A DNA stretch of 32,000 nt from Methylorubrum extorquens (GCA_900234795.1 LT962688.1:2190001-2222000); one strand, 5' to 3'; shown: positions 5,855 to 26,885, counted from the stretch's first letter. Numbers and translations: made by a program. The notes: generated by a model not told the origin, from the letters alone.

Positions 5855-6097
5855 TCAGGTGTAGATGTCACGTCGGTCACCGATCGCAAAGACCGAGATC
5901 GTATCGCCAGTCTCGGTGAAGACCGCGCGGTAATCGCCGATCCGCAGCCGCACACCGGGCCGGCCAACCAGGGACTTCGTCGAACCCAAGCCGGTTGCCG
6001 CGTAGCGTTCCAGCTTCGCCAGGATATCGGCCTGCGCGGGCTTGGGGAGTTTGGTGAGGCTTTTGAGGGCAGCGGCTGTGTAGAGAATAGTCTTCAC
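5855..6097 (-). CDS. type II toxin, RelE/ParE superfamily
   Basis: 80 aa, GTG start. Characteristic C-terminal half VGRPGVRLRIGDYRAVFTETGDTISVFAIGDRRDIY. The toxin precedes the antitoxin (HigBA-like order). Confidence 0.75.
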   Translation of the reverse strand: MKTILYTAAALKSLTKLPKPAQADILAKLERYAATGLGSTKSLVGRPGVRLRIGDYRAVFTETGDTISVFAIGDRRDIYT

Positions 6098-6174
6098 GGC
6101 ATCGGCGTCGCAGGCATGCGCGCAAGAGTGCAGAGTCGCTCAGACGATGCAGCCGTAAAGTGCCGGCGCGGCGA

Positions 6175-6486
6175 TCAATGACGCCGGTCGAACACCCGCC
6201 GCGCGCCATATCCGGCCGCCGCCCAGAGAAACGCCGAGACCGTTCGCACCGGAAAGAACGTCGGCAGGTCGGCCGCGACAGGGGCCGGCCAGGGCAGGCC
6301 GATCCGCGTCACGAGCCACGCGAACAGCACCGAGACCCCCAAAGCGGCGATGGCCGCGATGAAGACCTTGCCGAACTGATCCGCCTTCCAGCCGAGGAAC
6401 ACGGCGATCAGGATCAGGAGGGGGTCGAACCCGGCGAGGATCCAGACCGAGAACGAATAGACCGGGACGACGGGGGCGGCGTTCAC
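6175..6486 (-). CDS. small hypothetical integral membrane protein (about 3 TM)
   Basis: GTG at 6486 overlaps the gatA stop (GTGA). Hydrophobic stretches [20 protein letters not shown] and [19 protein letters not shown]. The rest of track ORF 6175..7116 is a gatA shadow frame. Confidence 0.5.
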
Positions 6487-24892: not shown

Positions 24893-25300
24893 TCAGCCCT
24901 TGAGTTCCTGGCTCAGGATTTCGACGGCGGCCGAGAGTTCGCGGCGCTGTTGCTCGGTGAAGGTTTCCGTGAACTGGCGCGCGAAAGCGCGGGCAAGATC
25001 GGACCACGGCTCGACAGCGTAAGCGTGCTGGCCATTGTCTGAAAAGCCACGCTCCGTTTCCGGGTCCGGATGCGGAATGCCATCGAGAAAGTCAGAAACC
25101 GGAGTATTGGTGAGCCGACTGAGGATCGCGAGATGAATCGCGCTGATCCGGTTAACGCCTTTTTCGTACTTCTGGAGTTGTGCGGCAGACATCCCGAAGC
25201 TGTCGGCAACTGCTCGCTGCGTTAGCTTCGAGCGTTTGCGCTGCTCGGCAATGCGACGTCCGAGAAGGACGTCGCGCTCATCGGTCTTCTGGCCTGCCAT
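24893..25300 (-). CDS. XRE-family helix-turn-helix transcriptional regulator
   Basis: HTH_3 core LGRRIAEQRKRSKLTQRAVADSFGMSAAQLQKYEKGVNRISAIHLAILSRL. Start is ATG 25300 or 25315. GC content is visibly lower than in the flanking genes. Confidence 0.7.
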   Translation of the reverse strand: MAGQKTDERDVLLGRRIAEQRKRSKLTQRAVADSFGMSAAQLQKYEKGVNRISAIHLAILSRLTNTPVSDFLDGIPHPDPETERGFSDNGQHAYAVEPWSDLARAFARQFTETFTEQQRRELSAAVEILSQELKG

Positions 25301-25485
25301 CTTCGTTCTGCCCAAGCTCTTTCGGGCGATGCTTCGAACGAAAACTTTCCGCTTGCAAGGGCGCGTCGGGAGCTAATGGCAACGACACACACGTTATGTC
25401 ATTTGTTATAGCTGCGGCGCGACGTCGCACTCAGATCGCAGGAAGTATCGGCTGTCCGCCTGCAATCTGAGGCAGCGAAAACCCT

Positions 25486-25805
25486 TGGCGTCCCCGGCAG
25501 GGCTCGAACCTGCGACCCCAGGTTTCATACCACTTCGACTTTCGCCGCCACGCTGTTCGCGCGTTCGTGGTCTGGACTATCCCTTCACCGTGGGCTTCGA
25601 ACGAAGCCTTTAGGTGCCACCCGTCTAGTCTCTACACCTTCCCGTGGGCCGTGACCGGACCTCGGGCTTGGCTCGGGATCGGCAGAGCGCCGCGGCGCCG
25701 GAAGCTTTCCCCGAATTTGAGTGGATCCGCCGTGCGGTTTCCCATCACGGCGCCCAATTGTGGAGTTTAGGAAACCTGTGCTCTGTCCAGCTGAGCTACG
25801 GAGAC
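25486..25805 (-). tRNA. tRNA-Arg(CCU) interrupted by a group I intron in the anticodon loop
   Basis: - Exon 1, 25805..25769: GTCTCCG TA GCTC AGCTGGACA GAGC A CAGGT TTCCT.
- Exon 2, 25525..25486: AA ACCTG GGGTC GCAGG TTCGAGC CCTGC CGGGGAC G CCA.
- The joined exons give a 77-nt cloverleaf. All four stems pair, with one G-U in the acceptor.
- G18G19, T54-psi-C loop, U33 and A37 are present, and CCA is encoded. Confidence 0.9.
25526..25768 (-). ncRNA. group I self-splicing intron (IC3-like, Azoarcus/Agrobacterium tRNA-intron type), 243 nt, no ORF
   Basis: - Inserted after U36 of the anticodon; it ends in G (25526).
- P1: exon CCU plus intron AA pairs with UUGGG (25757-25753), giving the U-G pair at the splice site.
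- P2 hairpin GCCGUGAUGG-GAAA-CCGCACGGC.
- Core strings UCAAAUUCGGGGAAA, CCGAGCCAAGC, GAAGGUGUAGAGACUAGACGG and CACCUAAAGGC match, from memory, the Azoarcus tRNA-Ile intron core. Confidence 0.85.
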
Positions 25806-26033
25806 GTCGATTCAGGCTTAGCATCATCGCAGGGGGCCGCCAACCGGTCCGGCCTGGGCCGTCGGCGATTGTACGGGGCGAGCCGGAGCGCGCGATCGGC
25901 GCGCTGTTGCCCGAGAGGCGCACGGGCCGGCAATCCGCGATTGTGCGTCCGCGGCGCTCTCGCGTGCCGCGATCCGGGCACTTTTCGCGCGGCATCTTCG
26001 CCTAAATCGAAAGGCCGAGCGCGAACGGTGACG

Positions 26034-26885
26034 ATGTTGCCCGGTGGTGGTCACGAGATCGGCTCGCGTGGGAGCCGGACGAGCCGAGGCGGCGCCCCGG
26101 CTCTCGTTTGGCTGCTCGCGGCCGCGTGCGGCGCGCCCGGTGGTGCTTCAAGCGCTCCGCGGGTGGAGGAGGCGTGCCGGCCTTCCGCCTCGCGGGACGA
26201 CCGCCTTGCCGAGATCGGACCCAGGGGCGAGCTGCGCCTCGCCTCCGGCCGCCGGGCCGTGCTCTCCGGGCTGCGCTGGCCCGACGAACCGGCGCTCGAC
26301 GCGGCCGCGCGAACCTGGCTGCACGCCTTTCGCGGCGCACCCCTGGTTTTGACCGAACGCGGTGCCGAGGACCGCTGGGGCCGCCGTCGCGCCGACGCAA
26401 TCGGGATCGCGGGCGAGGCGGAGCCGGTCGATCTTGCCGGAGGATTGGTCGCGGCCGGGCTTGCCTATGCCGATGCCGGCGAGGCCGACACGCTGTGCCG
26501 CCCGGCGCTCCGCGTCGTCGAGGCGGCGCCGCGCGCGGCCGGGCTCGGCCTGTGGGCCGGCGGCCCGCTCGCGGCGACCGATGCCGCGGCGCTGAGCGGG
26601 CGCGCCGGGCGCTTCGCGGTGGTGGAGGGGCGCATCCTGCATGTCGGCGAGCGGTCGGCCCGAACCTATCTCGACTTCGCGCGCCGGGGCGAGCAAGGCT
26701 TGACCGTAACCGTGCAGAAACGCTCTTGGCGGATTCTGAGCGAACATGGTTTGTCTGCGGCCACGCTGAAGGGCCGCCTCGTGAGAATCCGCGGCATGGT
26801 CGAGATCGGTCGGGGACCGTTCATCGACCTCGCCGGTGTCGACGGCATCGAGGTCATCGAGGGAGAGCGGGCGCTGCGGCGCTAG
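26034..26885 (+). CDS. SNase-like (thermonuclease family) lipoprotein
   Basis: ATG 26034 lies within track ORF 25644..26885, whose upstream part overlaps the tRNA/intron. Lipobox LLAAACG. DRWGRRRADA...LVAAGLAYA and the C-terminal TYLDFARRGEQGLTVTV...GRLVRIRG resemble the alphaproteobacterial thermonuclease family. Catalytic residues were not verified. Confidence 0.5.
   Translation: MLPGGGHEIGSRGSRTSRGGAPALVWLLAAACGAPGGASSAPRVEEACRPSASRDDRLAEIGPRGELRLASGRRAVLSGLRWPDEPALDAAARTWLHAFRGAPLVLTERGAEDRWGRRRADAIGIAGEAEPVDLAGGLVAAGLAYADAGEADTLCRPALRVVEAAPRAAGLGLWAGGPLAATDAAALSGRAGRFAVVEGRILHVGERSARTYLDFARRGEQGLTVTVQKRSWRILSEHGLSAATLKGRLVRIRGMVEIGRGPFIDLAGVDGIEVIEGERALRR

Follow-up and report, generated by a model that had tools for sequence, protein, structure and literature searches.

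The transfer RNA (tRNA) genes of bacteria are known hosts of small group I introns. The intron in the tRNA-Ile(CAU) gene of Azoarcus sp. BH72, a member of subgroup IC3, is a model system for crystal structures of these ribozymes. A tRNA-Arg(CCU) intron of Agrobacterium tumefaciens was reportedly described as self-splicing by Reinhold-Hurek and Shub in 1992, and Paquin, Heinfling and Shub are said to have surveyed such introns among the alpha-purple bacteria in 1999. Methylorubrum extorquens is a pink methylotroph that serves both as a model methylotroph and as a production chassis. Here, we describe a split tRNA gene in a 32,000-nucleotide (nt) stretch of its genome (GCA_900234795.1, LT962688.1:2190001-2222000; hereafter the window, with positions counted from its first nucleotide). 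The locus is very probably a chromosomal tRNA-Arg(CCU) gene of the M. extorquens group, split between U36 and A37 by a 243-nt IC3-like group I ribozyme intron that lacks an open reading frame (ORF) and that is of a known alphaproteobacterial family.

The Agrobacterium and Azoarcus introns had been correctly cited as precedents in the initial annotation of the window, which was made by a model from the sequence alone. To these can be added BbgpI of Bartonella bacilliformis (2020), which lies in an unannotated tRNA-Arg(CCU) gene, undergoes splicing in vivo and is self-splicing in vitro (PMC7717549).

The split tRNA-Arg(CCU) gene and identification of its intron

The gene is encoded on the minus strand, as are all features below unless stated otherwise. 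Reading of the minus strand of 25400..25900 identified a 37-nt 5' exon, GTCTCCGTAGCTCAGCTGGACAGAGCACAGGTTTCCT (25805..25769), and a 40-nt 3' exon, AAACCTGGGGTCGCAGGTTCGAGCCCTGCCGGGGACGCCA (25525..25486), with 243 nt between them (25768..25526). The 5' exon, ending in UUCCU, contains the acceptor 5' strand, the D arm with A20, the 5' strand of the anticodon stem and U32 U33 C34 C35 U36, with the anticodon CCU at 25771..25769. The 3' exon (AAACC...GCCA) contains A37 A38, the 3' strand of the anticodon stem, the variable loop, the T arm, the acceptor 3' strand, G73 and an encoded CCA (25488..25486). When joined in silico, the exons form a 77-nt cloverleaf that ARAGORN calls as tRNA-Arg(cct), with a predicted junction of GGUUUCCU to AAACCUGG (CCU to AA); the unspliced locus is called by the same program as tRNA-Arg(cct) i(38,243) if long introns are permitted. 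The intron begins directly after U36 and ends in UAUG, its final G being at 25526. The exon and intron coordinates, the cloverleaf, the anticodon, the intron start after U36 and the final G are all as the initial annotation gave them, and the run of a tRNA caller on the intron-deleted sequence that it had proposed (done here with ARAGORN) returned the predicted tRNA. Its central reading, a tRNA-Arg(CCU) gene split after U36 by an ORF-less IC3-like intron, is upheld by the Rfam match, by a model that leaves the genus out, by covariation and by synteny.

A permissive search of 25300..26000 with the general Rfam model of group I introns, RF00028, gave a match at 25773..25558 that spans the full model (positions 1-253) with 36.0 bits and E = 1.7e-7. 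This search, also proposed in the initial annotation, thus yielded the expected end-to-end match, but at a score under the model's gathering score of 50 bits. Homologues of the intron were collected by scanning a genome collection for the core string GAAGGTGTAGAGACTRGACGG, which gave at least 120 loci; nearly all of those listed sit in the anticodon loop of a tRNA gene. Ten tRNA-Arg(CCU) introns from other genera, none belonging to the Methylobacteriaceae, then served to build a covariance model (R2), with a structure predicted by RNAalifold. Model R2 scores 25776..25520 at 224.9 bits (E = 3e-70), its sole match in the 32-kb window. Taken with the covariation described below, these matches show the intron to be a genuine group I intron.

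Among the matches listed, tRNA-Leu(UAA) is the majority host, followed by tRNA-Arg(CCU) (12 loci), tRNA-Ile/Met(CAU), tRNA-Arg(UCU), tRNA-Thr, tRNA-Lys and others; the same junction of CCU with A was found in all 12 of these other tRNA-Arg(CCU) loci. More than 130 homologues share this architecture in tRNA anticodon loops, and the intron family is much larger than the loci listed. Several hosts are misnamed by ARAGORN with long introns permitted ('tRNA-His(atg)', 'tRNA-Phe(gaa)', 'tRNA-Stop'), their junctions being those of tRNA-Arg(CCU) or tRNA-Leu(UAA) on inspection. With a further model, R1, tRNA-Arg(CCU) introns outside the seed score 206-221 bits, compared with at most 195 bits for tRNA-Leu introns.

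The same intron core was also seen, among the matches listed, in Alpha-, Beta- and Gammaproteobacteria, Acidobacteriota, Eremiobacterota, Chloroflexota, Gemmatimonadota, Bacteroidota and one Saccharibacteria metagenome-assembled genome (MAG).

Predicted secondary structure of the intron

The intron (numbered from nt 1 at 25768) shows the canonical order of paired regions P1-P9, with a P3/P7 pseudoknot, and this order is supported by covariation. In nine tRNA-Arg(CCU) introns the hand-built structure is 90.8% paired, compared with 31-45% when the pairing partners are slid, and both sides have changed in 33 of 73 pairs, a number equalled by none of 500 shuffles. Across 99 family members it is 93.9% paired (30-46% when slid) with compensatory changes in 53 of 71 pairs, in an alignment whose fitting to the model favours the structure. 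RNAalifold independently gives P2, P3, P4, P5, P6a, P8 and P9. It also pairs the exon flanks as the anticodon stem, which fits the known requirement for this stem in the splicing of tRNA introns (Zaug et al. 1993, as cited in PMC3984707).

P1 (25753..25771) is formed by C34 C35 U36 together with A1 A2 of the intron, paired with the guide UUGGG (intron 12-16), and is 96-98% paired. The U-G pair at the splice site that the initial annotation had pointed out, U36.G14, is present in 9/9 tRNA-Arg(CCU) homologues and 90/95 family members. The UU of the guide could alternatively pair with A37 A38 of the 3' exon to form P10; such alternate pairing of the guide, as P1 extension or P10, is the usual device for exon alignment. 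P2 (intron 17-41; 25728..25752) carries the GAAA tetraloop noted earlier at 25741..25738, and its pairs have changed on both sides in 5/7 cases among nine sequences and 7/7 among 99.

The core is built around P3 and P7. P3 pairs CCACUC (intron 45-50; 25724..25719) with GGGUGG (intron 147-152; 25622..25617) and is 100% paired in nine sequences, with 4/6 pairs compensatory, and 99.7% paired in 99. P7 pairs GACUA (intron 139-143; 25630..25626) with UAGUC (intron 190-194; 25579..25575) in the pseudoknot. It is 99.8% paired, its last pair being A-U in 79 and G-C in 19 sequences of the 99-sequence set without a mismatch, and its invariant G-C pair is presumed to be the guanosine-binding site. The P4-P5-P5a domain (intron 54-97; 25672..25715) consists of P4 (UUCGGG/CCCGAG; intron 54-59/92-97), a GAAA J4/5, and P5 (GC/GC) with P5a (GGCGC/GCGCU) at intron 64-87; P4 hardly varies (93.9% paired), and pairing in P5 is 99%. 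The P6-P6a-P6b domain (intron 98-132; 25637..25671) consists of CC/GG, CCCG/CGGG and, distally, a hairpin whose length varies; pairing reaches 99.5% in P6, and compensatory changes occur in P6a.

P8 (intron 153-183; 25586..25616) comprises CACC/GGUG, an internal loop CCUAAA/CACGG and a distal hairpin GGCUUC-GUUC-GAAGCC. It is 98.7% paired and 6/6 pairs of the distal helix are compensatory in the 99 sequences. This hairpin had been placed in P9 by the initial annotation; it is distal P8 instead, because it lies between the 3' strands of P3 and P7. The internal loop resembles the 11-nt tetraloop receptor and may act as one. In the M. extorquens group a position of this loop that is G.U in relatives is now A/C, which could form an isosteric A+.C wobble.

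The P9 domain (intron 198-240; 25529..25571) is a three-way junction of a closing helix (ACCAC/GUGGU), P9a (CGCGC-GAACA-GCGUG) and P9b (CGGC-GAAA-GUCG, GAAA loop at 25543..25540). In nine sequences these are 97.8%, 100% and 100% paired with 1, 4 and 3 compensatory pairs, respectively; in 99 sequences the P9 helices are 94-99.7% paired, and the junction was also recovered by RNAalifold from an alignment without Methylobacteriaceae. A competing CCACG...CGUGG hairpin from the initial annotation was dropped in favour of this junction, being 73% paired with covariation not above that of shuffles, against 98-100% pairing with compensatory changes. The intron ends in G243 (25526..25526), the terminal omega-G at the 3' splice site. 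A final G is found in all aligned tRNA-Arg(CCU) introns, which end in GGUAYG before AA, except for two that end in GGGAUG and one in GGCACG.

Four core strings had been taken for Azoarcus-like. CCGAGCCAAGC (94/99 family members) and UCAAAUUCGG (52/99) proved to be family-wide. GAAGGUGUAGAGACUAGACGG occurs in 80/99, a count that is biased because this was the search pattern. The fourth, CACCUAAAGGC, is not conserved; it occurs in 1/99 and is unique to the Methylorubrum lineage, relatives carrying CACCUAAGG. Features of subgroup IC3 that are present include a compact core, GAAA-capped P2 and P9, the lack of P2.1 and of a large P5abc extension, and shared J3/4, J6/7 and J8/7. The intron can be classed as IC3-like on the basis of homology to Azoarcus-type introns.

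Like its relatives, the intron appears not to encode a protein. The longest open frames within it switch strand between homologues, their sequence is not conserved and they have no Pfam match; this 243-nt intron with no conserved ORF thus offers no candidate homing endonuclease, as first suggested. Three ORFs that run across the locus, 25567..25770 (+), 25585..25995 (-) and the 5' part of 25644..26885 (+), were rejected as genes: they have no Pfam match, their GC content at third codon positions (GC3) is 0.64-0.79 compared with approximately 0.9 in real genes, and they are uncalled in ten public assemblies. The earlier warning that they would be false protein calls was right as to their being non-coding, but these ORFs are merely mechanical, there being no public call across the locus in those assemblies. 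The real upstream neighbouring gene starts at 26034.

Conservation and genomic context

The split gene is present at the same locus in ten Methylorubrum and Methylobacterium assemblies, the outcome of a survey of related genomes that had been suggested at the outset. Over 7.7 kb, the window and CP021054.1 share 99.9% identity. In six Methylorubrum genomes the gene order is M48 peptidase, a 283-amino-acid gene, the split tRNA, a gene of the XRE-type helix-turn-helix (HTH) family, metK and a tRNA methyltransferase-like gene (PF02390). The MetK encoded next to the locus is 100% identical to Methylorubrum MetK (ORF of 394 amino acids; 391 from the true start). Across these six genomes identity over the tRNA and its intron is 98.75-100%; no exon position varies and each genome shows 0-4 differences in the intron, with flanks that are 97.2-99.9% identical. 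Seven distinct substitutions were found in the intron: five lie in loops or exchange G.U and G-C pairs, one (G89A) is unpaired beside P5, and one changes a P2 pair to C.A in a single genome. Three Methylobacterium contigs and M. radiodurans have the split gene at the same site, with introns of 265 and 253 nt that score 208-215 bits. The intron appears to be inherited vertically within the Methylobacteriaceae, and itself lacks a means of homing.

Located between the tRNA and metK, the XRE-type HTH gene (24893..25315) has a GC3 of 0.68, compared with approximately 0.9 in its neighbours, and is syntenic across Methylorubrum and Methylobacterium despite this low value.

Predicted splicing and alternative explanations

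For the steps of splicing we rely on group I chemistry and on the experiments in Agrobacterium and Bartonella; it is from these that transcription, two transesterifications, the tertiary contacts and efficient splicing in vivo are predicted. Transcription would give a precursor of approximately 320 nt, in which the intron would fold into P3-P8 and P4-P6 domains held together by the P3/P7 pseudoknot, with the GAAA tetraloops L2 and L9b probably docking into receptor-like loops of P8 and P5. The guide UUGGG would pair with the anticodon CCU and so present the U36.G wobble, and an external guanosine bound in P7 would attack after U36. G243 would then take the place of this guanosine while the guide UU pairs with A37 A38 (P10), and the 3'-OH of U36 would attack after G243. 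Exon ligation would produce a 77-nt tRNA reading AGG codons and release the intron.

Several observations weigh against a split gene with a working intron of the known family. The RF00028 score (36 bits) is below the gathering score (50). Because 14/14 tRNA-Arg(CCU) introns of other genomes fall short too, this reflects the limited sensitivity of the general model towards the tRNA-Arg(CCU) subfamily and is not evidence against membership. The stability of the minimum-free-energy fold does not significantly exceed that of shuffles (z = -1.42), a single-sequence score that is uninformative for an RNA so rich in GC. Simple scans found no sigma-70-like promoter or intrinsic terminator, a weak negative because such scans are centred on E. 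coli. The P8 internal loop is CCUAAA/CACGG here and CCUAAG/UADGG (D = A, G or U) in relatives. An intronless tRNA-Arg(CCU) gene (L140 225..301 (-), metagenome contig Ga0307409_100039268) is identical to the exons of the spliced tRNA at 77/77 positions. Finally, kinship with the Agrobacterium and Bartonella introns was judged through homologues from genomes that stood in for them (Tokpelaia, L087, a relative of Bartonella, as its proxy).

Of the other explanations, the one that survives best is that the intron is genuine but needs a host protein, either chaperone or cofactor, in vivo, making 'self-splicing' a misnomer here. The Bartonella authors note that the 1999 survey leaves self-splicing or a need for cofactors unclear, and that the usual presumption for group I introns is that proteins assist them in vivo (PMC7717549). 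The departure of the receptor-like P8 loop from that of relatives and the unexceptional predicted folding stability would suit such dependence. It is nevertheless unlikely: BbgpI self-splices in vitro (PMC7717549), and every core helix of the M. extorquens intron, its U.G pair, its terminal G and both its GAAA loops are intact and under covariation constraint. The Agrobacterium member, too, reportedly self-splices (Reinhold-Hurek and Shub, 1992).

It is a highly speculative thought that the intron is kept across the Methylobacteriaceae without a homing endonuclease because it is useful. Splicing could gate the supply of tRNA-Arg(CCU), a rare-codon tRNA, by GTP or Mg2+ status or by stress; alternatively, the excised intron might be an abundant stable RNA with its own role. 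BbgpI was first noticed in Bartonella as a highly expressed 'sRNA' (small RNA) (PMC7717549).

That the locus is instead a dead copy, its intron no longer splicing and AGG being read by a second tRNA-Arg(CCU) or by tRNA-Arg(UCU), is very improbable. Metagenomes commonly contain intronless tRNA-Arg(CCU) genes that have the same anticodon arm, a scan for the spliced junction having given 48 contigs, and the exons of L140 are identical to those of the window. L140, however, has no flanking similarity or synteny to the window's locus and lies amid transposase genes (IS110-like and DDE-type ORFs, as judged by eye), and no intronless allele turned up when the syntenic locus was searched for one. Decay is also at odds with the invariant exons, with intron identities of 98.75-100% against 97.2-99.9% for the flanks, and with the nature of the seven substitutions, five of which lie in loops or exchange G.U and G-C pairs, leaving one unpaired change beside a stem and one P2 pair changed to C.A. 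The split gene is moreover kept in synteny in both Methylorubrum and Methylobacterium while its peripheral helices vary in length with compensatory changes, a hallmark of a working ribozyme under purifying selection. That two tRNA-like halves have come together by chance around a GC-rich spacer merely similar to a group I intron, an idea for which the RF00028 score below gathering and the fold z-score of -1.42 might speak, is already refuted by the extensive covariation and by model R2 (E = 3e-70 with exact boundaries and the genus left out), besides the more than 130 homologues of the same architecture in tRNA anticodon loops.

Annotation of tRNA-Arg(CCU) introns

A tRNA-Arg(CCU) gene split by a group I intron, the reading retained here, is invisible to standard tools. 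Default ARAGORN reports 0 tRNAs across the whole 32-kb window and Rfam at gathering thresholds reports nothing across it. The same holds for relatives: at its gathering score RF00028 passes 0/14 tRNA-Arg(CCU) introns of other genomes (L019, L023, L035, L040, L050, L054, L069, L079, L087, L102, L114, L119, L129 and L132), compared with 2/4 Azoarcus-type introns, the other two being missed, and RF00005 found none of the split tRNAs in the same test loci. The suspicion voiced in the initial annotation that standard callers are likely to miss the gene was therefore well founded, and there is a systematic annotation gap for the tRNA-Arg(CCU) intron subfamily. A covariance model of the subfamily would close it. 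This family-wide miss generalises the point made for Bartonella, whose host tRNA was likewise unannotated by standard tools (PMC7717549).

Under default ARAGORN and Rfam gathering thresholds the tRNA set of M. extorquens seems to be without tRNA-Arg(CCU), an apparent gap that would mislead models of codon usage and tRNA supply as well as the engineering of AGG codons. A literature search (with the 1999 survey outside its reach) found no paper that ties Methylobacterium or Methylorubrum to a tRNA-Arg(CCU) intron, so that the host is a new one for this well-known element, or at least one not remarked on before. The intron is mechanistically ordinary and adds nothing conceptually new to group I intron biology; its worth lies in annotation.

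Related introns in other genomes and plasmids

Several further carriers were observed in the course of the homologue searches. A tRNA-Arg(CCU) intron with a different tRNA body was found in a betaproteobacterial MAG, Herbaspirillum sp. (L119 4187..4435 (+)); it is the most divergent of the set (179 bits), and reflects either horizontal transfer beyond the Alphaproteobacteria or a binning artefact. One Proteobacteria MAG carries two intron copies approximately 300 nt apart on opposite strands (L020 5544..5778 (+) and 6072..6258 (-)). One of these is in tRNA-Leu(UAA); the other is shorter, scores 83.9 bits, has no tRNA detected around it and may be decayed or ectopic.

In plasmid pCTX-M3, a tRNA-Leu(UAA)-like gene that lacks annotation is interrupted by a group I intron of approximately 225 nt (NC_004464.2, ~61818..62121; L001 2925..3228 (+)), which scores 36.8 bits with RF00028 and 172 bits with R1. 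The gene adjoins a tmrB-like AAA ATPase gene and aac(3)-IId, and is found in 1271 resistance plasmids of enterobacteria, Acinetobacter and Aeromonas (including L002). Its nearest relatives belong to the Alphaproteobacteria: a MAG of the Bradyrhizobiaceae (84% over 472 nt), Novosphingobium (89%) and Rhodovulum (89.5%). This hints at an alphaproteobacterium as the source of this part of the aac(3)-IId region.

Comparison with known group I introns

The literature, searched for the Azoarcus core string, gave no match, and Azoarcus-type introns were represented by tRNA-Ile(CAU) introns of 204-223 nt from Neisseriaceae, Propionivibrio, Polynucleobacter and other MAGs (L080, L085, L094, L012, L072 and L044), three of which (L080, L085 and L094; 204 nt) we take to match the Azoarcus sequence. 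They share with the M. extorquens intron the insertion in the anticodon loop after nucleotide 36, the core strings UCAAAUUCGG, CCGAGCCAAGC and GAAGGUGUAGAGACUAGACGG, GAAA-capped P2 and P9 and the P3/P7 pseudoknot. Their host is tRNA-Ile(CAU) rather than tRNA-Arg(CCU), they are approximately 40 nt shorter, and they lack the P9a hairpin, the three-way junction and the extended form of distal P8 and of P6b; their P5 and P8 have near-canonical 11-nt receptors, unlike those of the M. extorquens intron. An extended 3' (P9) region relative to the Azoarcus intron of roughly 205 nt had been proposed at first: the intron is indeed longer, but the extra length is distributed over P9a, distal P8, P6b and P5a.

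The tRNA-Leu(UAA) introns of bacteria and plastids have the same IC3-like core and the same P9 three-way junction, and those of the Alphaproteobacteria are the next-nearest relatives after the tRNA-Arg(CCU) introns. AGUCCAGACCACGAACG and GGCGGCGAAAGUCGARGUGGUAYG are common to the M. extorquens intron and the plasmid-borne tRNA-Leu intron. The tRNA-Leu(UAA) introns differ in being inserted between U34 and A35 and not after nucleotide 36, with a guide for ACUU and not CCU. On shared columns, the M. extorquens intron is 86-89% identical to other Methylorubrum and Methylobacterium tRNA-Arg(CCU) introns, 77-82% to other tRNA-Arg(CCU) introns, up to 79% to alphaproteobacterial tRNA-Leu(UAA) introns and 57-66% to tRNA-Ile(CAU)-hosted introns; by this measure the proteobacterial tRNA-Leu(UAA) introns are nearer to it than the Azoarcus type is. 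The nearest neighbour of 12/13 tRNA-Arg(CCU) introns is another tRNA-Arg(CCU) intron, indicating that the tRNA-Arg(CCU) and tRNA-Leu(UAA) introns are separate lineages.

The closest resemblance is to the tRNA-Arg(CCU) introns known from Agrobacterium and Bartonella, with which the M. extorquens intron shares the host gene, the insertion between CCU and A, the lack of an ORF, a similar size (222-265 nt in homologues) and the guide AAUUGGGC, which is conserved apart from UUUGGGC or ACUGGGC in three members. The same insertion site is used in Mesorhizobium, Xanthobacter, Tokpelaia, Rhodobacter, Skermanella and Acetobacteraceae (77-82% identity). What sets the M. extorquens intron apart is the length and sequence of P5a, P6b, distal P8 and P9a, which are unlike those of other tRNA-Arg(CCU) introns, and the A/C in its P8 internal loop where these relatives have G.U. 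Its nearest neighbours are all tRNA-Arg(CCU) introns (79-89% identity), which places it within the alphaproteobacterial tRNA-Arg(CCU) intron family.

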